Assembly (NCBI GenBank): GCA_965205025.1
Contig: CBDBFU010000014.1
Location: 96,001 to 160,000 of the forward strand
DNA: 64,000 bases
Direction: 5' to 3'
Origin: Candidatus Poribacteria bacterium
GTDB lineage: Bacteria; Poribacteria; WGA-4E; WGA-3G
Part shown: positions 7,441 to 28,363 of the stretch, one piece after another
How positions within the stretch are numbered: position 1 is the first letter of the stretch
Layout: each line of letters starts with the position of its first letter
Notes under the pieces: model-generated
What the model was told of the DNA's origin: nothing
Database searches by the model: none
The model's input: the letters and a program-made list of their open reading frames with translations, nothing else
Program-made: the position numbers and the translations under genes

Positions 7441-10246
7441 TCAATTCAGATGCTTTTCAAACCAATCAATGATACGTTCCCAGCAATTCTGCGCGGTGTT
7501 CAGGTCGCCAATACCTCACGAGGTGTCCTTCACCACGATACCACGCAAATGTCGCTTCCTTCTTAAGCCTGCGTAATCCTGAGAAAAGCTCCCCAGATTG
7601 CGTGTAATCATCACCATTAAAGCCTTCACCACAATAGATTAGAACAGGGGTTTCTACCTTATCTAAGTGAAAAATCGGTGAACTGTCAATATATCGTTGG
7701 CGTTCTTCCCAGAGCGAACCACCTATATCCATACGATTCTTTCCTTCTATCCATTTAATACCAAAACTTCTTTCCAGTTTGGTAAGATTCCCGTAGATTC
7801 TGGTCAAATTATAGAAACCGCCACCGCAAACTGCGGCTTTGAAACGGTTGGTCTGTGTAATCAATCCGGCTGTGGAGTATCCACCGTGACCGTACCCCGT
7901 TATTCCCAAACGATTTGCGTCGGCGATCCCCATTTCAATGACTTTGTCTACCGCAGGCAGCACATATTCGGACAATTTTTCCAACGATTCGCTGGATCTT
8001 GATGGCACATCAACACCAAGCACGGCAAAACCACGGTGCAGCAAGGAGTTGAAAAGTTCATGACATATTTATCCAACCCAAAACTATAAATATACATTGA
8101 CAAGTGCCTGCCCGGATAGACCCATGTAACTAAAGGATACTTTTTGCCTTCCTCATAGTTAGCAGGTAGCATCAAAACACCACGCAAACGCTCGCCGTTC
8201 TCTCTTTGTAATTCGACGAAACGGACCTCACCAAATTGTAAGTCGCACAGATGCGGATTGAGATTGGTTACCTGCTTACATTTTTCAGAGTCTGTATCAA
8301 ACATCCAGACTTCCTCTGGATGTGTCGCATTCTGCGCTCTGTAGACAATCTGTGTGTCGTTACTGACTAACCCTTAAATCGTATTCGTCTGCGATTTGAC
8401 GGGTTATGCTAATTGGTTCTTCATACAAGCAAGTAGCACGTGCCTCAGCCGTATTTATCAAATAAAAACCATCTTTCTTTGTTTCTGGATCATGAGTCTG
8501 GACACAGATAGACTGTGCATCGCTTGACTGCCAAACGACGTGGGTATTTACTTTCGCGACAATACCCATGATGTGTTTCTTCAATTCTTCTGTCAGTTTC
8601 CGTGCGCTGCTACCGTCTGCTGCGAATTCCCATATATTCCAGTCGATGCCACAGAAAAACGACTCTCCTGATGGTCGCCATAACGGACGTGCGTAAAATC
8701 GCAGTTTCTCTGTAATGTCTGCAGTCAAGTTCTTCTGTTCACCATCTTGGACTGAAACAATAAACAATCCATCCGATTGCGCATATACCAGATACTTACT
8801 GTCTGGTGACCAACTCACGAATAGTGCTTTTTCGGTTATATTTGTAGCCAAACTTCGGGCTGGCGTTCCATCCAAAGGAACTAATAACAACTCATATAGG
8901 GTATCTTGAGATGTCAACTCCCTTCCTCGTATTATATTGAGTACAGCAACTGCAGTATTATCCGGAGAGAGTGTAATTTTTCTCGTAAACAAGCCTCGTG
9001 CGAGAACTTGCACATCACCCGTGTCAACGTTGAAGACACCTAAATCACCTTTGATCCACACAAATTGGTCTAAATCTTCATCTAAAGAAGACTCTTCATC
9101 CGTATCCGTATGCCAAACGTTTATCGCTTGTGGAATCGTTTTGTTTGAGATAATTGTGGAAATGTCCATATCTTCGGGACGTAACTTTGTGATGATATGT
9201 TTTCCATCCGAAGTCCACTGCGGGACTTCAACACCGTGTGTTGCAGTAATCGGTTTTTCGCTAACTTGCCGCAGTTCATTTTCAACCTTATCCCAAACCC
9301 AAAGATGAGGTGTTCCCATTCGGTCAGAAAAGAAGGCTAAGTAGTTTCCATCTGGAGACCAACGAGGTGCCCAGTCAACCCCCGTCCCTGCTCCAAGCTG
9401 ATATGTTTTCTTCGTTTTGATGTTGGTAACCCATACTTCCTGACTATGATTTTCTATCAATGCGCCTGTTAGTTGATGCAGTGAAAATTCATCGGTCTGT
9501 TGTTCGAACGATGAATTTCGGTCAGGGTCGACTACTACATAGGCAAGCCACTCTCCATCTGAGGAAAGTTGCATTCGTGATCGGTCTGATAAGGACTTAA
9601 TCTTGAGTATATCTGAACTCATTTTATCTGCCATGCTATTTTCTCCTTGTGAACTGTGTTCCTTTTCAATAGAACTATCTATTGTATCTTGGACAAATAA
9701 ATCGTATTGTTTTAACCTTTGTTTTGCGCGTCGCAGCCGACTCTTAATCGTATTTTGGGGGATGCCTAAATAGCGACTTATCTCAGCGGATGTCATCTCT
9801 TCGAAGTAGTGGAGTGTGATTAACTGTTGATCACTTTCCTTTAGCTTTGAAAGTAACTTTTGTACTAATTCGCGTTGTACTTCAACAGCATCCCGCTCGT
9901 TTTCCAAAGCTACATAACGTGAATATGAATCTGTCTCGGTTTTCAATGTATAACTTTCACGTAACAATTCGGACATGGATTGCTTTTTTCGGAACCACGC
10001 GAAACAGAGATAATTTGCAATCGAAAAAAGCCATGTTGAAAACTTGGTTGGATCTCTCAGCTTTTCGAGATTCTGATACACTTCGAAAAATATTTCTTGT
10101 GTAATGTCTTCAGCAATGTGGAAATCTCCAACTTTCCGATATGTATATGCGTGAACCTGCTCTTGGTATTTACTCACCAAACTCGCAAAGGCAGCATCAT
10201 CACCCGCAAGTGTGGATTGGATCAACACAACATCGCCTGTATTCAT
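7441..10246 (-). CDS. ECF sigma factor fused to an S9 (prolyl oligopeptidase-like) propeller plus hydrolase domain; three frameshifts
   Basis: Sigma region 2 (AEDITQEIF) and region 4 (TIKSRLRRAK); WSPDG repeats; GVLMLPANYEEGKKYPL; GEGH. Frames join near 8375, 8050 and 7487 and end CWERIIDWFEKHLN*. Confidence 0.75.
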
Positions 10247-10281
10247 CTGACATCTCCGGAAAGGTTTCATTATGTAAGAAT

Positions 10282-17758: not shown

Positions 17759-17862
17759 ATAGGTAATAATATTAGATCAATTCCTGACAAATTAAAATCG
17801 TAGCACTACAGCGGAGTGCTATGTATTGAATTATTCATACAAGTATGGATAAAAGGAGAATC

Positions 17863-18787
17863 ATGGAAAACACTATTAAAAACATTGAACCATCAACAAC
17901 TAAACTCGGTTGGGTTGGCACAGGGGTTATGGGACGTTGGATGTGTCAACACCTTATGGATCTTGGATACGAGATGACAGTATACAATCGTACGAAATCC
18001 AAGTCGCAACCTTTGATAGATGCAGGAGCAACATGGGCAGATTCACCGAGTAATGTTGCTGCTGCTTCCGATATCATCTTTACCATCGTAGGTTTCCCAC
18101 CAGATGTCCGAGAGGTATATCTTGGAGATAACGGTATATTAAAAGGTGCAAAATCTGGTAGTATCATTGTCGATATGACAACAACTGAACCCTCACTGGC
18201 ACAAGAAATATACACTGAAGCTAAAGCTCAGAATGTATCATCTGTAGATGCTCCTGTATCGGGGGGTGATGTAGGGGCACGCGAAGCACGGCTTTCTATT
18301 ATGGTTGGTGGAGACGAAGATGCCGTTCAAGCAGTTATGCCACTTTTCTCTGCAATGGGTAAAAATATCGTTCATCAAGGAGAAGCAGGGGGCAGGACAG
18401 CACACCAAAATGTGCAACCAAATTACTATATCCGGCACAATGATCGGTGTCTGTGAAGGCTTAATATATGGACACAAAGCGGGTTTGGATTTGGAAACAA
18501 TGCTATCTTCTATCAGTGGTGGTGCAGCCGCATGCTGGTCATTGGACAATTTAGCACCACGTGTATTAAAACGTGACTTTGATCCAGGTTTTTTTGTGGA
18601 ACACTTCATAAAAGACATGAGCATCGCCTTAGACGAAGCCAGAAAAATGAATCTTAGCCTTCCCGGTCTCGCCTTAGTACATCAACTCTATACTGCAGTA
18701 CAAGCACAAGGTCATGGTCGGTTAGGGACACAAGCACTGCTATTGGCTTTAGAGCAAATGTCTGGTACAGAAGTTAAAGGAAAGTAA
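17863..18787 (+). CDS. 3-hydroxyisobutyrate dehydrogenase-family NAD(P) oxidoreductase (frameshift in G-run near 18390)
   Basis: [26 protein letters not shown] split across two ORFs. Confidence 0.85.
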
Positions 18788-18867
18788 TGCCATTACATAT
18801 TTACTATCTGTAGATGGATCAAAGCAAATTTGATTACTATCTGTTATGATACCAATTTTACTTAATT

Positions 18868-18987
18868 AACGTGAGTTTGATTATAGGCGTATGAACTTCA
18901 TCTATCCAAAAATATTACCCTATAGACCGGTAGGTACGGTTTCCTAACCGTACCGAATTCAAGATTCTGTGTTATCAAACTCACGTT
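18868..18987 (+). mobile_element. IS982-end MITE with REP hairpin, 5-bp TSD TAATT
   Basis: TIRs and TSD read directly from the sequence. Confidence 0.85.
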
Positions 18988-19010
18988 TAATTAGCTTATA
19001 TTAATAGCAA

Positions 19011-19245
19011 CTATAGTTTGGACAATTTTTAGATATAGCACTCCGCTGGAGTGCGGGATTGCTATGCTTCACTGCTATAGACATATTGCTCCGCTGGAGC
19101 AAGACCCACAACTTATCCGGATGTTAGACGCAATCAATACACAACTTAACGATACCGTCATTACGATGTCTCCTCACACCAGCGGTGTGATATGTCTATA
19201 GAAATAAGAGGTAGAAAGCCCCGCACTCCAGCGGAGTTCTATGTA
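19011..19245. repeat. Cluster of GCACTCC-AGC-GGAGTGC-type hairpin repeats
   Basis: Four related hairpins in both orientations. Confidence 0.7.
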
Positions 19246-19249
19246 AAGA

Positions 19250-19350
19250 TGTTCGCTTTGGACATAAACGCGCTCCCAGTCGTCTACCTCATGCTGCCCC
19301 ATTATGTGTCCTCTCACTTGCAGATGGGTATGTGCGTCATAAAGGATACC
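19250..19350 (-). pseudogene. Orphan C-terminal fragment of a Y-family secreted protein
   Basis: YDAHTHLQVRGHIMGQHEVDDWE versus YDAHTHLQVRGQIRGQHEEDDWE in 22607-23428. Confidence 0.7.
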
Positions 19351-19367
19351 TGCCTGTGAGATAAGTT

Positions 19368-20417
19368 TCAATCTAATTGCTTAAGGCTGCCCCATTGTGT
19401 TGTCAGTTTATCTTGCGGAGATACAGCATGGAAACCCTCTATCCAGTGTGGTTGATAGTCGTTACTTGGGTGATTTGTTAGGTTTGTGAGTCTTTTACTT
19501 GCCAAATTGTATTTATAGATTTCATAATCGGATTCAGGATCAGCCCCATGTGCTCTCATAGACAGTAGTACATTCAGATCATCTCCCATCCAGCATCCAG
19601 TTGTGATTACCGTGACTTTTGGGAAATCGTGAATATGACGAAATCCTGTATAAACATTATGAACTATCAATTGCGAAGCAATAGGATGTAATTTCCGATC
19701 CGCATCCACTCTGAATAGGTGGTCATCATACATAATGTATCTACCAGATGGTGACCAAACGGGAGCTCCTCTATTCAGATATATACCTTTACCTGGGTTG
19801 CGAGTGAGTCTTCTCTTTCTTTTCCCATCTGCATCCATGATCCAGATATTCCAAGTACTATCATCTTCACCATCATGTTGATAGGCAATCTGTTTGCCAT
19901 CTGGAGACCAGTCCATTCTATGCGACCATGCTGATGGAAAGTCATTGTCTGTAAGTTGCTTCAGATTTCCTGTTTCTAAGTTCAAAGTATAGATATCCCA
20001 ATTCCCTGATCGGTTACTCCTAAATGCAATTTTCTTTCCATTCGGTGATATGACTGGTTTTCTATCAGTAGGGTGATTTATCATAAACCGATGTTCATTT
20101 AATCCTGTCTCATCAATAATCAAGAATTGATTATTGTCTGTCCGTCCCGTTCCAGGATTATGGTCTCTTACAAATAGTATACGTTTGCCATCTGGAAACC
20201 ATCTTGGGGTTCGATTCCAAGTTCCTGCAGGTGTTATTCTTCTGAGATTACTACCATTATCTTCCATCACATAGATATGATATGCCGTTTCACCTTCTCG
20301 TTTGGTTGTGAAGGCAATCTTGGCATGACAACATAAAGTGAATTCTATAAACAACAGAGATATGAGCATAAGACACCAACAATTATACCAGTTTCGGATT
20401 GAAAGATTAAATCTCAT
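19368..20417 (-). CDS. Secreted TolB-like (PD40) beta-propeller, family Z
   Basis: Signal peptide, W(S/F)PDG repeats, C-terminal KLTTQWGSLKQ. Confidence 0.85.
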   Translation of the reverse strand: MRFNLSIRNWYNCWCLMLISLLFIEFTLCCHAKIAFTTKREGETAYHIYVMEDNGSNLRRITPAGTWNRTPRWFPDGKRILFVRDHNPGTGRTDNNQFLIIDETGLNEHRFMINHPTDRKPVISPNGKKIAFRSNRSGNWDIYTLNLETGNLKQLTDNDFPSAWSHRMDWSPDGKQIAYQHDGEDDSTWNIWIMDADGKRKRRLTRNPGKGIYLNRGAPVWSPSGRYIMYDDHLFRVDADRKLHPIASQLIVHNVYTGFRHIHDFPKVTVITTGCWMGDDLNVLLSMRAHGADPESDYEIYKYNLASKRLTNLTNHPSNDYQPHWIEGFHAVSPQDKLTTQWGSLKQLD

Positions 20418-20436
20418 TATGTTCTCCTAATTAGAG

Positions 20437-20475
20437 TAGATCCTCAAAGACTCTTCACGAACCTTTGAGGATCTA
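20437..20475 (-). terminator. 13-bp stem hairpin between Y and Z
   Basis: TAGATCCTCAAAG...CTTTGAGGATCTA. Confidence 0.6.
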
Positions 20476-20485
20476 TAATCACTAT

Positions 20486-21333
20486 TTATTCTTCAACATT
20501 CCATGTACTACTCATTGAAGCAAACCATCTATCTGTATTATCCTCATCTTGTTCCTGTCCACTAATCCATGCTGCAATACTCATTGATGCTTGTACACCA
20601 AAGGAATCTCCTTGTCCGAAAAAAGTAACCTCAAAGGAATCTGAAAACGAAGGGAAAGACACAGATTGTGATTCATCGTTTGCATTAATTGAACCGTGTA
20701 AAATCTGTATTCCATCAGGTTGGTCGAATAGATTATTTTCATCAAGGTTCCCATCCGCTTGTAACTTGCCAACTGCATAGAAAAGATTCATTACATAACT
20801 AATGTCATGTATACCATTATTTGTAATAGAACCGGAGATTGTTGCTTCAGCTGTAGAACCATTCCATCCCGCATTGGCAGAAGCATCTCCTTGTGCTCCT
20901 GTGTGAAACCCCTGTCTCTTATCAACATCTGGAGTGGTATAGACGTACGCTGTGTAGGAATCGGTGTCTTGGTCGATATTGCCATTTTCATCCATAAACG
21001 ATTGAACGACAGCCTTTACCTCATAACTTGTACCGAAAGGGGATCCGGGATAGTAGAAACTACCGGCAGAGAAACAGGCTGTTGTTTGTGGATTGTTAAT
21101 ATCACCATTGCTTGTACCTACATGAACATCGTTAATATACCACCATACATCTGAAAACGGTTCATCCGTTTCTACACAAGCAGAGGGGTAGAGGTATCCA
21201 GCATAGTTGTAGTATTGACCATTACTGGGGTACAACGACGTAATTTCTATTGCTTCACTGTTATTTACCAGTGTGAACAAGAATACAGAACAGATGATCG
21301 TTATTGCGAGGGCCACATTGTGTGTTTCAACAT
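20486..21333 (-). CDS. Secreted acidic unknown protein, family Y (2-bp insertion after codon 4, or GTG start at 21316)
   Basis: Signal peptide and leader are near-identical to those of 22607-23428; mature part diverged. Confidence 0.75.
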
Positions 21334-21442
21334 TTTTTCATCTCCTATGAAAAGTTGACATGCTTTGTAGCATATCGTTGTGTTTATCGGATAACCTATG
21401 AGGAGCATTTGCACCTACAGCTGGAAGTATTTCGTAACATGT

Positions 21443-22534
21443 TTACTGCTTTAGTGCTCCCCATATTGCTTCTTTTTTCTCTACTGCGGACACTGACAGT
21501 ACATCATCACTTATCCAATCTAATGTTCCATCCGTACCCGGATGGTTAGTTAGCCGCGTAATCTCACCTGTATGGATATGATACTTGTAGATATTGCTCG
21601 TTGGATACACAAAATCGCGTGGTAATGGTTTGTTCAAAGGTATGCCGACACGTGCACCGAAAACGATTGATTTACCGTCATCCATCCAGTCATTGCCATA
21701 CCCTTCCCAGTCCTTCGGTATTCTGAGTTGTTTGATATTCTCTCCTTTCCGATCACATATTATATACCGAAACGCCCTGTAGGTAATCACGTTTCCGCGA
21801 TTCGGTACAAACACAAACTTATACTCTCTTTGTTGAAACAACACCTGTTTACCATCGGGTGACCATCGCGGTCTGGAGCGGTAAATGGCGAATTCACCTA
21901 CACCCGGATCTGGAACAAGTGGACGAGGATTATGACCATCGGCACCCATAATCCAAATCGTGCTATTGGAACCACCACCGATCCCCCAGGGCATGGCATA
22001 CACATATTGCTTGCCATCAGAGGACCAATCGCCATTGATACCATCAATATCTGCTATTTCTTTGAGTTTCCCTGTTTCAATATTCAACTCGTAGATGCCA
22101 GTTTGCCGCTTTTCGTCTATCCGAATGCTCTTATTAAAAATAATAGAAGTGCCGTCAGGTGAAAATGAACCACGATTGAGAAGACTCCCATCGTTTTCGG
22201 TGAGTTGCCGCCTGTTTGTGCCGTCCGCATCCATTAAGAAAAATACATAACCGTGAACCTTGTCAATGCCTCCGTCCCTATCCACAAGCTTGCTTTGATA
22301 TTGCTTAATCAAAATCTGTTTACCGTCAGGTGACCAACTATCGGGGTATGGTTTTCTGAAATCGTCTTCTATGAGAAGTGTCAAGTTGCTGCCATCATCG
22401 TCCATTAAGTAGACACCCTTCGTTCCCAAGCGAGTTGAACTAAATACGATTTTAGCATTAACTGCTGTTGCTAAAAATAGAAGAAGCAGACAGAGCAAAA
22501 CAACTTTCTGACACCGCTTTTCTTGTAAACGCAT
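21443..22534 (-). CDS. Secreted TolB-like (PD40) beta-propeller, family Z
   Basis: Signal peptide, WSPDG repeats, C-terminal KKEAIWGALKQ. Confidence 0.85.
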   Translation of the reverse strand: MRLQEKRCQKVVLLCLLLLFLATAVNAKIVFSSTRLGTKGVYLMDDDGSNLTLLIEDDFRKPYPDSWSPDGKQILIKQYQSKLVDRDGGIDKVHGYVFFLMDADGTNRRQLTENDGSLLNRGSFSPDGTSIIFNKSIRIDEKRQTGIYELNIETGKLKEIADIDGINGDWSSDGKQYVYAMPWGIGGGSNSTIWIMGADGHNPRPLVPDPGVGEFAIYRSRPRWSPDGKQVLFQQREYKFVFVPNRGNVITYRAFRYIICDRKGENIKQLRIPKDWEGYGNDWMDDGKSIVFGARVGIPLNKPLPRDFVYPTSNIYKYHIHTGEITRLTNHPGTDGTLDWISDDVLSVSAVEKKEAIWGALKQ

Positions 22535-22552
22535 GATGATACTCCTTTCATG

Positions 22553-22579
22553 AACGGCAGGGATACAATCCCTGCCGTT
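22553..22579 (-). terminator. 12-bp stem hairpin between Y and Z
   Basis: AACGGCAGGGAT-ACA-ATCCCTGCCGTT. Confidence 0.6.
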
Positions 22580-22606
22580 ACATTCGAATTATAGATTGTT
22601 GTTATA

Positions 22607-23428
22607 TCAATCTGGATTATCTTTATCAGTAAACTCCTGAACTTCAGAATCCGTCTCCCAGTCGTCTTCTTCATGCTGTCCCCTAATTTGTCCCCTTACT
22701 TGCAGATGGGTATGTGCATCATAAAATAACTTCTCGCCATCGCCAATCAGTCTGCCAACCCAAAATTCGGTCAATATAGATTCGACAGAATCAGAAAACG
22801 TTGTGCCGGATAGTAAATCTACGAAAACAAGTGGTTGGTTTAAAGGGGGATCTCGTTTAGTATCATCCACCGCTCCAGCCTCGTTCCCGACTGTTTCAAA
22901 CTTCTGCTGTCGGAACCAGGCTGTGACCTCCAAATCTTCATCCGTGCCGTTATTAGCATTGGCATATCCAGACATTGTGACAGTGATACCGTTGAAGGAG
23001 AGGGATGAGACTTCTGCGTATCCGTAGACACCAGTATCAGGACCGGTTTCACCTTTAAATGCCGGTTTATAGACCCTAACCGTGTCGGATGCATCTTCAT
23101 CAGAGGAGTCCACAAATGAGACGACTGCCCTGATACGATACTTCATACCTTTTATGTTCCCATATAACGTTCCAAGGTAAATATTGACAGATCTGATATC
23201 GTCACCGTGTATACTCGTGAATTTATAAACATCGTCTACATGCCAGTCTATAAAGGCAATGTCTTCATCCGCTGTCAGAGAAGCAGAGGGAATTGTACCT
23301 GATCCCCAATCATCACTTACATAGACTGAAAATGACGTTATTGAACCTGCGTCACTATTATTGATAAAGCCTAAGAGGAATAGGGAACAGATGATCGTTA
23401 TTGCGAGGATCACTTTGTGTTTCAACAT
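22607..23428 (-). CDS. Secreted acidic unknown protein, family Y
   Basis: Signal peptide (SDA cleavage), beta-rich composition, AGGAG RBS. Confidence 0.8.
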   Translation of the reverse strand: MLKHKVILAITIICSLFLLGFINNSDAGSITSFSVYVSDDWGSGTIPSASLTADEDIAFIDWHVDDVYKFTSIHGDDIRSVNIYLGTLYGNIKGMKYRIRAVVSFVDSSDEDASDTVRVYKPAFKGETGPDTGVYGYAEVSSLSFNGITVTMSGYANANNGTDEDLEVTAWFRQQKFETVGNEAGAVDDTKRDPPLNQPLVFVDLLSGTTFSDSVESILTEFWVGRLIGDGEKLFYDAHTHLQVRGQIRGQHEEDDWETDSEVQEFTDKDNPD

Positions 23429-23533
23429 CTTTTCATCTCCTATGAGAATTTGACATGCTTTGTAGCATATCGTTGTGATTATCGGATAACCTATATTTAT
23501 GACATAGGTTGTGAAAGTGTCTTTGTTAATATA

Positions 23534-23636
23534 TATATACAGTTAGGTTGAAATTGTTTAGGTATTTTTTTTCAATAGCCGTTTAGTAATGACTTTTTCA
23601 AAATAATCCTAAACTTTTTCCATTTAAACGTATATA
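23534..23636. promoter_or_regulatory. Divergent twin promoters CCTAAAC-N14-YGTATATA
   Basis: Minus strand 23562-23534 and plus strand 23608-23636 have the same boxes and spacing. Confidence 0.6.
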
Positions 23637-23656
23637 ATTAATTAGGAGGTGTTTTT

Positions 23657-24031
23657 ATGACACACCAAAAGGGACCACATAATAGAGGTAATTGTCCTTT
23701 CCATGTTGATCAGGATGATCCGATCTCTGCTGAAAAGTCCATCGATAAGTGCATTTCTTGTGTGATAGCACATAACGCACAGATGGAACGTTATACTGAT
23801 GATCTACGCCAAATTGCGTTTTTAACGATCATTGAAGAGACACCGAAATATGACACTAATCACCCAAGCAATGCCAGTTATACCACGTTTATTAAAGCAC
23901 GCGTATGCACACGGCTTTGGACAGAAAGAAGAAATGTACTAAAGTATGTGTCTTTTCCTATTGCGGAAACTTCTGGGGAGATGGATATTTTCGAACATAA
24001 CCCAACTCACGTTAATTGGATATTCTATTAA
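23657..24031 (+). pseudogene. Sigma-70 family factor, region 2 only, truncated by an IS982-type end
   Basis: AGGAGG RBS; DDLRQIAFLTIIEETPKYD...ASYTTFIKARV; AACTCACGTTA at 24004-24014. Confidence 0.65.
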
Positions 24032-24097: not shown

Positions 24098-24442
24098 TTA
24101 AATTGTTTCAGATGTTTTAAGATTAGTTCTGATATCCGTAATAGGGCTAACCGATAACTGACACTCAAGAGCATTCAATATGGTTCGGAATAAATCTAAA
24201 CGTGGTGCTTCCTCCCCACATAAAGCATCCAAAAGTTCCTGTGATTCAATTCCAGTTCGTTTAGCAAGAATAGAAATACCCCCCTGCGATTCTACAAATG
24301 TACGTAGACCCTTTAAAAAGAAAGGAAGATCACCATCAGTCTGGTATTCCGTCAATGTCAATTGTAGATAATCAATCGCTGCTTCACGATCATTTGTAAG
24401 GCTTTCAATAAAATATTCACGCCAATTTCCCATTTCGCGCAT
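24098..24442 (-). CDS. Addiction module antidote protein (HTH antitoxin, HI1420-like)
   Basis: GGISILAKRTGI...PRLDLFRTILNAL; start overlaps the toxin stop (TGATG). Confidence 0.85.
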   Translation of the reverse strand: MREMGNWREYFIESLTNDREAAIDYLQLTLTEYQTDGDLPFFLKGLRTFVESQGGISILAKRTGIESQELLDALCGEEAPRLDLFRTILNALECQLSVSPITDIRTNLKTSETI

Positions 24443-24822
24443 CAGTGGGTCTCCTTATATTCTACCCAATATGTCTTGGCAAGTTCGATGTCCCGTATTT
24501 GTGATGTTTTGTCTCCACCCCATAATAGAAGAATTACTGTGTTATCAATCCTTCCAAAATAGATACGATATCCTGGACCGAAGTGGAAACGCAATTCAAA
24601 AACACCTCCACCAACTGGTTGGCAATCACCAAAATTACCACTTTCAATCCGCTCAAGACGTTTGGCAATTCTGTTTTTTGTCTTTTTATCTCGTAAAGAT
24701 TCAAACCATTCAATAAAAGGTTGTTTATATTTGGGAGATCGGTAGTATTGAATTTCTATCAGTTGCTTGTTTTCCAATGATATATTCTTAAATCTGATAT
24801 GAAGATAACTAACCCATTTCAA
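24442..24822 (-). CDS. RelE/HigB-like addiction module toxin (true start probably near 24777)
   Basis: GNFGDCQPVGGGVFELRFHFGPGYRIYF...GGDKTSQ. Confidence 0.9.
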   Translation of the reverse strand: MKWVSYLHIRFKNISLENKQLIEIQYYRSPKYKQPFIEWFESLRDKKTKNRIAKRLERIESGNFGDCQPVGGGVFELRFHFGPGYRIYFGRIDNTVILLLWGGDKTSQIRDIELAKTYWVEYKETH

Positions 24823-26904: not shown

Positions 26905-28363
26905 CAATACCTTCGCCAATTATCCTGTGCTTAGTTCTAACTGTGTGTGATGAATAGCACCGATAGAACTAAGGTGCTGTGTGATTTGCTCAATAACAAT
27001 AGGTTCAGGTTTTTGCGGAAGTATTTTTAATGTTTCCTCTAAATACTTCATAGCTCGGTATTTTGCTTTCAAATCTAATACGCTACACGCCGTGTTATTA
27101 GACCGAAATGTGTTTGCCATTTTCGCACTCACATTTACCATAAACAAGGATAAGTTTGCTGCATTGTTCACAGGTGTTTTTTTGACATTCATAAAATCTT
27201 CCAACCCCCAATACTGTTTTGCGTCTCTGAAGTTAAACTCTATTTGAAAACGAAGGGAGTAATAATCAATCATCTTTAGAGCACTCAGTTTTAGGTCAGA
27301 ACTAAACAATAACACGTGTGATTTTTGTCCTGTCAGCAGATGCGTCTTGAGAAGACAAACAATATTGAGAGGATCCGCAAACTGCTTATGACGCAAGTGT
27401 ACTTGATACACTTCGGTTCTGATGTTATCGGTTGTTTCAACAGAGACACGCCATTTGTTATCCATTTGTTGTGGATTGAAACGATCCCCATAGAGGGCGC
27501 GGCGTCCACGACCTTTATACGGTGTCGTTGGTGGATAATAGAGCGCAGCATCTGTGCGAAGTTTTGAAATGAGATGGAGACCACATTGTGATACCATTTG
27601 TAGCGCATTATTGTGTCCGAAATATCCATCAAGCACAAAATAACGGAGTTTGATACAATCTCCCATCTGTTTGAGAAATGATTTCACCATAGTTTGAAGT
27701 TGTTTCAAAGTATTGCTGAACACAACATCCTTTTTGTTTCGATTCAGGCTCCCTTTGGGGCGACCACGCCCTCGTTTTGTTATGGCTTTCTGTGTATTCT
27801 CCTGATCTTCGATTGCAGACACATCCATATTGGCTGATGCGTTGCTACGCACGATTTGTTCCATCATCATTGGGTAAGAACACCTGTCTTTGACGCTTAC
27901 TAAGGACACCGCTAAAAATGACAAACCGGAAATCGGTTTTCCATGTAATGAGGAGAAGAAGCGATCTATACCATAAGTTTTTTTCCCAGTTTTTGACACC
28001 GTGACTTCATCTGCTACAAGGATATACAAACTTTTAGGATCAAACAGATATTTTTTGAAAAAGAGCCAACACATCTTTGGCCAAGGGAGATCTGTGCTAA
28101 AGAAGCGTTGTATCGTACGATAACTCCCTCCTTTTGATGTCCAACGGGAGATATTTAACATTGTGACCTGACCTGTCATCGCAAGCAGGGCAAATACAAC
28201 TTGACATAACTGGCGGATCATAGTAGTGGATAAACATAGATTAAATACAGTAAATAATGCTATAATTTCTGGCATGGGTGTGTGTCCTTTCTAAGTTAAA
28301 ATGATATTTTAAAACTTTAGGACAAACACCCTTTTTATTCAAGTGTTTTTGGCGAAGGTATTG
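26905..28363 (-). mobile_element. Intact insertion sequence (IS701-like DDE), 15-bp TIR, 6-bp TSD TCATTA
   Basis: CAATACCTTCGCCAA / TTGGCGAAGGTATTG; TCATTA at 26899-26904 and 28364-28369. Confidence 0.9.
26920..28275 (-). CDS. DDE transposase (IS701-like / IS4 superfamily)
   Basis: VADEVTVSK, VLDGYFG, YSLRFQIEFNFRDAKQYWGL (YREK-like). Confidence 0.9.
   Translation of the reverse strand: MPEIIALFTVFNLCLSTTMIRQLCQVVFALLAMTGQVTMLNISRWTSKGGSYRTIQRFFSTDLPWPKMCWLFFKKYLFDPKSLYILVADEVTVSKTGKKTYGIDRFFSSLHGKPISGLSFLAVSLVSVKDRCSYPMMMEQIVRSNASANMDVSAIEDQENTQKAITKRGRGRPKGSLNRNKKDVVFSNTLKQLQTMVKSFLKQMGDCIKLRYFVLDGYFGHNNALQMVSQCGLHLISKLRTDAALYYPPTTPYKGRGRRALYGDRFNPQQMDNKWRVSVETTDNIRTEVYQVHLRHKQFADPLNIVCLLKTHLLTGQKSHVLLFSSDLKLSALKMIDYYSLRFQIEFNFRDAKQYWGLEDFMNVKKTPVNNAANLSLFMVNVSAKMANTFRSNNTACSVLDLKAKYRAMKYLEETLKILPQKPEPIVIEQITQHLSSIGAIHHTQLELSTG

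Follow-up and report, generated by a model that had tools for sequence, protein, structure and literature searches.

Several described systems couple a variable protein to the product of the adjacent gene. In the contact-dependent inhibition (CDI; CdiA-CT/CdiI) and Rhs (Rhs-CT/RhsI) arrays, the C-terminal part of the first protein and the next gene form one module, the cassettes are arranged in tandem, and orphan C-terminal fragments occur. In the tip and chaperone modules of phage tail fibres, co-inheritance links the variable C-terminal domain to the gene behind it; the N-terminal part recombines separately and plugs into a conserved structure. Exported sandwich proteins and propellers belong to one system in Vibrio cholerae (RbmA, with two FnIII domains, and the beta-propeller proteins Bap1/RbmC), and PD40 repeats form the propeller of TolB in the Tol-Pal system. 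Here we analyze a locus that resembles each of these in part, a tandem array of gene cassettes on the minus strand of a 64,000-nucleotide (nt) window, that is, the whole stretch analyzed, from the Candidatus Poribacteria assembly GCA_965205025.1 (contig CBDBFU010000014.1, positions 96,001 to 160,000). Each cassette encodes an exported protein, Y, with a predicted FN3-like head and beta-sandwich tail, followed by an exported protein with a PD40-type beta-propeller, Z.

The Y-Z cassettes share with the CDI and Rhs arrays the modular C-terminal part, the tandem arrangement and an orphan fragment. Unlike these systems, no toxin or delivery domain was found in Y, the variable part of which is apparently a structural beta-sandwich, the partner is an exported, tagged propeller of 340 amino acids (aa) that evolves more slowly than Y, and the orphan fragment has no partner gene. 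Y-Z differ from the tail-fibre modules in lacking a phage context and a fibre or chaperone fold, and in carrying Sec-type leaders. With RbmA and Bap1/RbmC, they have in common an exported two-sandwich protein of about 270 aa and an exported propeller in the same system, but there is no sequence similarity, the template modelling (TM) scores are low and the propeller is of the PD40 type. As for TolB, Z contains PD40 repeats and matches the TolB model (TIGR02800) over a fraction of its propeller portion only, with scores far below the cut-off (85.1 bits for Z1 and 126.4 bits for Z2, against 343.15). Z-like paralogues number about 20 per genome, no tol or pal genes are present beside Y-Z in the contexts listed, where the neighbours are Y genes, and a Z of 349-363 aa including the signal peptide seems too short for the additional N-terminal domain of TolB. 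We therefore rejected the identification of Z as TolB.

Comparison of Y-Z pairs shows Y to be an apparent mosaic, in which the tail is inherited as one block with the whole of Z, and recombination of the leader, signal peptide and FN3 head is independent of this block. We compared 20 pairs in which both open reading frames (ORFs) are intact, 4 from the genome under study and 16 from its relatives; loci with a truncated or shifted Y or Z (L004, L013, L016, L026, L027, L029, L030 and L034) were left out. The identity matrices of whole Y and Z are correlated (r 0.72, with none of 5000 permutations as high), so that the co-phylogeny check proposed in the initial annotation comes out positive. Y evolves faster than Z, with mean pairwise identities of 33% and 51%, respectively. 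When Y is divided, the tail correlates with Z (r 0.79) far better than the head does with either the tail (0.39) or Z (0.42). When the segments are made finer, r is 0.58-0.80 between either half of the tail and every third of Z, including the far third, which lies about 1 kb away; the head correlates with everything at only 0.32-0.44, despite abutting the tail. Individual pairs make the same point in both directions. Y1 of the window and the pair G022a are 21% identical in the head, 59% in the tail and 68% in Z, and the pair on contig C26 of the same genome as Y1 and the pair G002a are 85% identical in the head, 41% in the tail and 58% in Z. Approximately unbiased (AU) tests reject the clade of Y1, G002a and G022a, recovered with tail and Z, on the head data (p-AU 0.0035), and reject the head clade of C26 and G002a on the tail and Z data (p-AU 3e-28). 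These discordant correlations and tests indicate two units of inheritance, one comprising the leader, signal peptide and FN3 head, and the other the tail, the spacer and Z. The joint between head and tail appears to lie near a conserved V-Y-K-P junction.

The initial annotation had proposed cognate pairs of a secreted variable protein and a propeller serving as receptor, chaperone or immunity partner. The pairing itself holds, in that exported Y and Z are co-inherited and Z is adjacent almost everywhere that Y occurs, but the immunity role is not supported, no toxin having been found. The comparison sharpens the proposal in that the cognate module is apparently the Y tail together with Z. A complex prediction for Z1 (residues 27-363) and Y1 (28-273), made with their own alignments (score 0.02, mark 0.32), has no bearing on binding in either direction. 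That FN3 heads evolve in concert within a genome was considered and dropped, as the excess is not significant (p 0.07, 8 within-genome pairs), although three heads of the genome under study are 55-67% identical.

The Y-Z pair appears to be a multi-copy, conserved operon almost confined to one genus of Candidatus Poribacteria, which consists of uncultivated sponge symbionts. The genome under study (5.66 Mb, 33 contigs) contains five Y copies, two in the window and the others on contigs C26, C13 and C1; the C1 copy (G000:C1:7138-7913, locus L055) is split over two frames. This last copy lies directly downstream of, and on the same strand as, a gene for a sigma factor of the extracytoplasmic function type. 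Mapped across genomes, Z stands next to Y on the same strand at 5 of 5 loci in this genome and directly after Y at 57 of 59 loci in the relatives (19/19 and then 38/40); the two Y genes without a following Z are a truncated one and one with a stop codon. In about 9 of 40 loci of the relatives (L064, L067, L068, L072, L074, L080, L084, L088 and L089), two propeller genes follow Y.

A single-protein search found Y in 19 of 24 genomes of the same genus and in none of the 16 genomes that represented three further families of the order. With a profile applied across the phylum, Y was detected in 30 of 37 genomes of the genus and in 3 of 57 of its sister genus, with 1-12 matches per genome; both of the two genomes from another genus gave weak matches to the FN3 head only, and no match was obtained in the remaining 19 sampled genera. 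A word-based search returned 17 relatives of Y, none with a name or a Pfam domain, and a scan of genome contigs with a narrow alignment yielded three loci. Against a library of 1.84 billion representatives, the profile matched 232 proteins at E up to 0.001; Y represents an undescribed family, of 232 representative clusters, with no relative in Pfam, NCBIfam or the PDB. The surroundings are not conserved: none of the 12 proteins that flank the array in the window was matched in five loci of relatives (L030-L034).

Within the array, the two cassettes have strongly diverged. The initial annotation gave the order Y1-Z1-Y2-Z2-(Y fragment) on the minus strand, and the ORF list and the sequence agree with it and with its statement that the mature proteins differ widely. 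Y1 and Y2 are 34% identical over 194 columns (E 2e-14), and Z1 and Z2 are 30% identical (E 4e-38). Each of the two is a complete cassette that has a leader and a ribosome site of its own (Table 1).

In Y1, a signal peptide of the Sec type precedes an FN3-like head (residues ~28-122), and the tail (~123-267) is a beta-sandwich with long strands. As read from the translations, both Y and Z start with a hydrophobic leader with an Ala-type cleavage motif, and the Y1 model has a helix at residues 2-22. The AlphaFold models have a mean predicted local distance difference test (pLDDT) value of 89.5 for whole Y1 and 96.6 for the tail alone. In fold searches, the head retrieved many FN3 and Ig-like domains (Z-scores 8-9.4). 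The best match of the tail was the MspA rim domain (Z-score 8.6, root-mean-square deviation (rmsd) 3.3, 115 aligned), which does not stand clear of the rows beneath it; RbmA was also retrieved (Z-score 7.9, rmsd 2.7, 110 aligned). Foldseek, the run of which the initial annotation had called for, returned arrestin-like sandwiches for the tail, with TM-scores under 0.5, and matched whole Y to RbmA at E 4.5e-5 with TM-scores of 0.19-0.27, and of 0.22-0.26 at an rmsd of about 14.6 over the whole protein; otherwise, only generic FN3/Ig and sandwich folds were obtained. All these scores are in the common range of the tool and, on the models, we read Y only as a predicted beta-sandwich protein, in which no enzyme or toxin fold was seen. 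Y2 has an FN3 head of another type than that of Y1, and a very divergent tail.

Sequence searches with Y were uniformly negative: there was no family in Pfam or NCBIfam, no match to PADLOC for Y1, Z1 or Y2 (Z2 had one weak match, E 0.0088), and no match of the Y profile to PDB sequences at E up to 1; in the protein atlas, the best feature score for Y1 was 0.80, below the lead level. A delivery domain of type 5, 6 or 7 secretion, Rhs, LXG or a similar kind was likewise not found, the only parts of Y being the Sec-type leader, the FN3-like head and the sandwich tail. A role of Y as a pore-former was dropped, as the long hairpins of the tail, read from the sequence, are charged rather than amphipathic. 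Thus, the remark in the initial annotation that no toxin domain is recognizable extends to Pfam, NCBIfam, PADLOC, PDB sequence and fold searches.

Z1 consists of a signal peptide, a TolB-like PD40 beta-propeller and a C-terminal tag, and Z2 has the same layout, with four PD40 repeat matches; Y lacks the tag. The tag comprises about 17 residues with the consensus L-x-V-[ED]-P-x-G-K-L-T-T-T-W-G-x-[LI]-K and is encoded at about 21443-21500 in Z1 and 19368-19425 in Z2. Its core, W-[GAS]-x-[LIVM]-K, occurs within the last 15 residues of 139 of the 5736 ORFs of at least 100 aa, Z1 and Z2 included, compared with 1, 2 and 6 ORFs at control positions. A leader-like N-terminus is present in 124 of these ORFs, and the majority of the 139 encode exported proteins of the LamG type, about 250 aa long. 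The tag is not covered by any Pfam or NCBIfam model, and the matches of four other tagged proteins end before the tail; a literature search with the tag strings found no paper. Z1 and Z2 hence appear to be members of a class of exported, C-terminally tagged proteins of Poribacteria. Enrichment of 'eukaryote-like' domains, FN3 and PD40 among them, has been reported for sponge microbiomes (PMC9531527), and Y-Z fit this enrichment. A broader literature search brought up nothing relevant among the matches listed.

The spacer between the Y stop codon and the ribosome site of Z contains a GC-rich stem-loop in 19 of the 20 pairs. The RNAalifold consensus of these 19 sequences (the pair without the stem-loop was left out) has 8 base pairs, 4 of which show compensatory double changes. 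In the 5.66-Mb genome, the motif of the Y1-Z1 type has just two occurrences, each in a Y-Z spacer, and is therefore not a dispersed repeat of the genome. In many loci, a T-run follows the stem. Operons that encode a major subunit followed by minor factors, such as those for fimbriae and pilins, usually have a stem-loop with a T-run behind the first cistron. By this analogy, we infer that the intercistronic stem-loop may be a leaky terminator or a 3' stabilizer that would yield more Y than Z.

The second conserved stem-loop is located in the leader. Near-identity of about 115 bp of leader and signal peptide between the two cassettes had been pointed out in the initial annotation and is borne out: the alignment of 23380-23493 with 21283-21399 has 106 identical columns out of 117 (91%). 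The core repeat consists of 84 nt at 93% identity (21316-21399 and 23411-23494) with a flanking 90 nt at 73%; beyond the first ~70 nt of the coding part, identity is down to 50-63%. Part of this similarity is a functional constraint common to the genomes, and the rest is extra similarity within the array. The leader stem-loop has 8 bp and is located about 10-25 nt ahead of the ribosome site (23452-23471 in cassette 1). A pattern search located it in 21 of 63 Y loci, with hardly any matches in the rest of the searched DNA; a shuffle control does not discriminate. Its variation consists of U-G/G-U wobble on the sense strand and one compensatory C-G, and this pattern favours an RNA hairpin, as the putative nature of the element, over a DNA operator. 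In cassette 1, a -10-like GATAAT (23478-23483) lies 7 nt upstream of the stem-loop, and the hairpin may thus be at the 5' end of the transcript.

In the window assembly, the leader ATG of cassette 2 (21333) is two letters out of frame with Y2, a difference that falls within an ACAC run at the Y2 start. Logan contigs of four public runs, which we mapped onto 18700-23900, all leave out the letters 21319-21320 at full depth. Without them, Y2 has an open frame of 281 codons from 21333 to 20486 and starts with a signal peptide of the same kind as that of Y1; the GTG start of Y2 in the assembly results from the two extra letters. The apparent frameshift is thus probably an error of this assembly, and its consistent absence from the runs makes such an error most likely, rather than a switch in the population. 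Elsewhere in the window, at 17845-18787 on the plus strand, a gene of the 3-hydroxyisobutyrate dehydrogenase type is split over two overlapping frames, with NAD_binding_2 in 17845-18456 and NAD_binding_11 in 18305-18787; given the assembly-only letters in Y2, this split may be an assembly error as well. The probably false frameshift matters when other 'broken' genes of this genome are read.

A second Y-Z-Y-Z array is present in the relatives' genome G022 (L031, G022:C1:5066000-5080000; 7463-7926 and 9802-10265). Upstream of both of its Y genes, 267 and 109 nt (376 nt in total) are 100% identical and 91 nt are 91% identical, and the 3' ends of the Z genes share 169 nt at 87%. The second Y of this array has a one-letter shift in the signal-peptide region. 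Thus, in both arrays examined, the 5' segment appears to be homogenized, which fits gene conversion or recombination in this segment.

Contigs of two runs, from two studies, bridge the window array in the same order: a 3652-nt contig of X1 spans 20959-23900, and a 4159-nt contig of X3 spans 19596-23756. The pieces from the runs X4 and X5, which represent strains diverged by 2-6%, are consistent with that order. No credible alternative joint between cassettes was found in the run contigs, which drop rare variants; the cross-cassette joints that did appear have a shorter side of 20-23 letters at PD40 motifs, are probably cross-matches between paralogues and were not counted. Divergence of the X4 and X5 strains is uneven along the array, at 0-0.6% over 22072-22689, 4.5-6.2% over 21365-21875 and 3.6-4.0% in Y2. 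Z1 is thus a mosaic between strains, its 5' half being nearly identical to the window and its 3' part 4.5-6.2% different, which hints at recombination between strains. Altogether, shuffling of cassettes by recombination, as suggested by the initial annotation, is supported on the evolutionary time scale, by the homogenization of the arrays and the discordance of the heads, and shuffling that is still going on is not supported, the order being the same in the two runs that bridge the array.

A variant of the Y1 C-terminus behind Z2, also noted initially, is real but short. In a 65-aa ORF, only about 75 nt are Y-like: 20 of 25 residues match residues 234-258 of Y1 (E 4e-14), and at the DNA level 19273-19343 and 22655-22725 are 87% identical over 71 nt. 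The tail of this ORF (aa 35-65) comes from translation of a dispersed repeat, of which the genome has tens of copies. The stump begins about 20 nt past the Z2 stop codon, has no leader, ribosome site or Z of its own, and runs into a cluster of inverted repeats, two hairpin cores of which are each covered by about 100-110 matching pieces across the genome. The short stretch between the Z2 stop and the stump, considered as a candidate dispersed repeat, has short matches in other genomes and nothing else in its own. On the simplest reading, deletions on either flank removed the rest of a third cassette and left the stump; it may also be a by-product of a cassette-joining event. Orphan pieces of Y were found in other genomes in the phylum search. 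A candidate recurrence of the Y-Z-stump layout in G022 (1682393) was rejected, as Y is interrupted there by about 1.8 kb and its C-terminal piece stands in front of Z.

Table 1 Features of the Y-Z array in the window (positions are those of the 64,000-nt window).
Feature	Coordinates	Strand	Remarks
Cassette 1 leader, repeat copy 1	23380-23494	-	-10-like GATAAT, stem-loop, GGAG ribosome site, start of the Y1 signal peptide
Y1	22607-23428	-	273 aa; ORF list
Y1-Z1 intercistronic GC-rich stem-loop	22553-22579	-	between the Y1 stop and the Z1 ribosome site
Z1	21443-22534	-	363 aa; ORF list
Cassette 2 leader, repeat copy 2	21283-21399	-	stem-loop 21357-21376; begins ~40 nt past the Z1 stop
Y2	20486-21316; 20486-21333	-	276 aa from GTG; 281 codons without the two assembly-only letters; ORF list, public-run contigs
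Y2-Z2 intercistronic stem-loop	20438-20474	-	12 bp; same place as the Y1-Z1 stem-loop, other sequence
Z2	19368-20417	-	349 aa; ORF list
Short ORF containing the stump	19174-19371	-	65 aa; ORF list
Orphan stump of the Y tail domain	19273-19347	-	25 codons; equals Y1 residues 234-258
Dispersed hairpin repeat cluster (similar to repetitive extragenic palindromes/miniature inverted-repeat transposable elements)	18850-19275		adjoins and truncates the stump

Upstream of the array, the window carries a pair of genes of the Gp49/HigB-like and HI1420-type antidote kinds (24098-24822, minus strand), both just below the Pfam cut-offs, and a DDE transposase gene (26920-28275, minus strand). A truncated gene at 23657-24031 on the plus strand encodes about 100 of 217 residues, the N-terminal part, of a sigma-70-family protein whose N-terminus is Cys-rich, and there are five copies in the genome; on contig C9, at least one of two copies is located directly before a gene for a Z-like propeller without Y. 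The sigma factor was considered as a conserved member of the system and rejected, as it is near only 2 of the 5 Y loci of this genome, one of these two copies being truncated.

We lean toward the reading, to us somewhat probable, that the array comprises two diverged tandem cassettes and the dead stump of a third, in which Sec-exported Y and the propeller Z constitute a variable binding or adhesion module of the envelope or surface. Each cassette would be built of a leader whose 5' stem-loop is near the promoter, Y, a GC-rich stem-loop, often with a T-run, and a tagged, exported Z. The tail domain of Y would work with, and probably bind, its own Z, and the intercistronic stem-loop would keep Y more abundant than Z. 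The pair would act in the envelope or on the surface, in variable binding or adhesion that faces the host, the matrix or phages, and would not be a toxin with its immunity protein. Arrays would arise by duplication or insertion of cassettes with recombination in the conserved 5' segment, and the stump would be a relic cut off by the dispersed repeats. That recombination of cassettes occurred in evolution is supported, and copies are born, are moved and decay, so that the family evolves by birth and death. The function itself, a surface or envelope binding module with Y in excess over the tagged propeller, is what we infer from these traits.

Several observations weigh against this reading. At 16 of the 21 Z-like loci listed for the genome under study there is no Y, and only 5 of the 21 follow Y; independent occurrence of the two proteins, named in the initial annotation as grounds for refutation, is thus found for Z and not for Y, which almost never stands without Z. 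Inheritance of tail and Z as a block is explicable by linkage and a single recombination hot spot, with no need for physical interaction, and the groups compared in the AU tests were chosen after the identity tables had been seen, so that the p-values are generous. The fold matches of Y are middling (Z-scores under 9.5, Foldseek TM-scores under 0.5) and mute on function. The pattern used to pick the leader sequences requires an inverted repeat, which inflates their 98.8% pairing. Among the 24 strain differences listed for Y2, which are a biased subset of 249, 19 alter the residue and 5 leave it as it is; this fits decay as well as diversifying selection. Finally, 11 of the 146 match rows of the phylum search contain an internal stop codon and several are fragments.

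It is fairly unlikely, in our estimate, that Y is a self-assembling matrix or fibre subunit similar to RbmA, with Z as a minor factor for assembly, anchoring or processing. RbmA is among the best matches of both whole Y and its tail, we take it to be similar to Y in size and likewise exported, and the stem-loop with a T-run after the first cistron is just what a major-subunit operon usually has; but the TM-scores are low, Y and RbmA have no sequence similarity, polymerization of Y is hypothetical, and the tight co-inheritance of tail and Z suggests specificity rather than a generic assembly factor. The layout had also been called typical of polymorphic toxin and immunity arrays, in which case the Y tail would be the toxin, Z the immunity protein and the stump an orphan toxin tip as in CDI and Rhs arrays. 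The tail and the downstream gene do form one module with an independently recombining front part, in tandem arrays with an orphan C-terminal fragment and with a toxin-antitoxin pair and a transposase in the neighbourhood, and Z covaries with the tail much more than with the head, which linkage alone also predicts. We nonetheless hold this explanation to be decidedly improbable, because the searches reported above gave no toxin, nuclease, pore or delivery domain. Moreover, the tail is an integral beta-sandwich, the best folds of which are rim or scaffold domains, and the leader of Y is of the Sec type only. Z, for its part, is exported and has a sorting-like tag, its evolution is slower than that of Y, and its family is also used without Y; a stem-loop that lowers Z relative to Y would endanger immunity, and the stump has no partner gene.

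Programmed antigenic or phase variation, through switching of cassettes at the repeated leader or through on/off slippage in the signal peptide, was the other layout to which the array had been likened. The repeated leader and signal-peptide start, 91-93% identical, a second array with the same pattern, the 2-nt difference in the ACAC run at the Y2 start and the mosaic strain divergence along the array would all suit such a mechanism. We consider it very improbable, as both cassettes are complete, the 75-nt stump is the only partial cassette and silent, promoterless ones are otherwise lacking, the order is the same in the X1 and X3 contigs, the only cross-cassette joints are the short ones at PD40 motifs, and the 2-nt difference is absent from all four runs at full depth. 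That the pair has no joint function at all, being a decaying, selfishly duplicated unit whose adjacency reflects co-duplication and whose array in the window is heading for loss, appears improbable. The internal stops and fragments, the split Y copy on C1, the residue-changing strain differences in Y2, the non-syntenic loci and the position of the array amid repeats, a truncated sigma-factor gene and a transposase could all be taken as signs of it; against this, adjacency was kept while Y diverged to 20-35% identity, compensatory or wobble changes maintain two RNA stem-loops, the confident models have cores that are conserved, and most copies are intact.

Inheritance of the Y tail and Z as a block yields a testable prediction of interacting surfaces and a natural set of cognate and non-cognate pairs, and the two conserved stem-loops provide handles on the expression of the operon. 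A bolder version, which we regard as unlikely, is a surface-diversification system, in which a specificity module of the tail and the tagged propeller would be swapped onto interchangeable export/FN3 heads; the location of the swaps at two fixed joints, the leader/signal peptide and the V-Y-K-P interdomain junction, is equally doubtful. If true, it would mean that these bacteria possess many pairs, similar to receptors or effectors, directed at host cells, matrix or phages, and that a bacterial counterpart of tail-fibre/chaperone or toxin/immunity swapping has been built from folds not previously so used. In this uncultivated genus of sponge symbionts, Y is tied to its propeller partner and, if the pairs are indeed directed at the host or phages, the family would reveal the way in which such symbionts diversify their surface.

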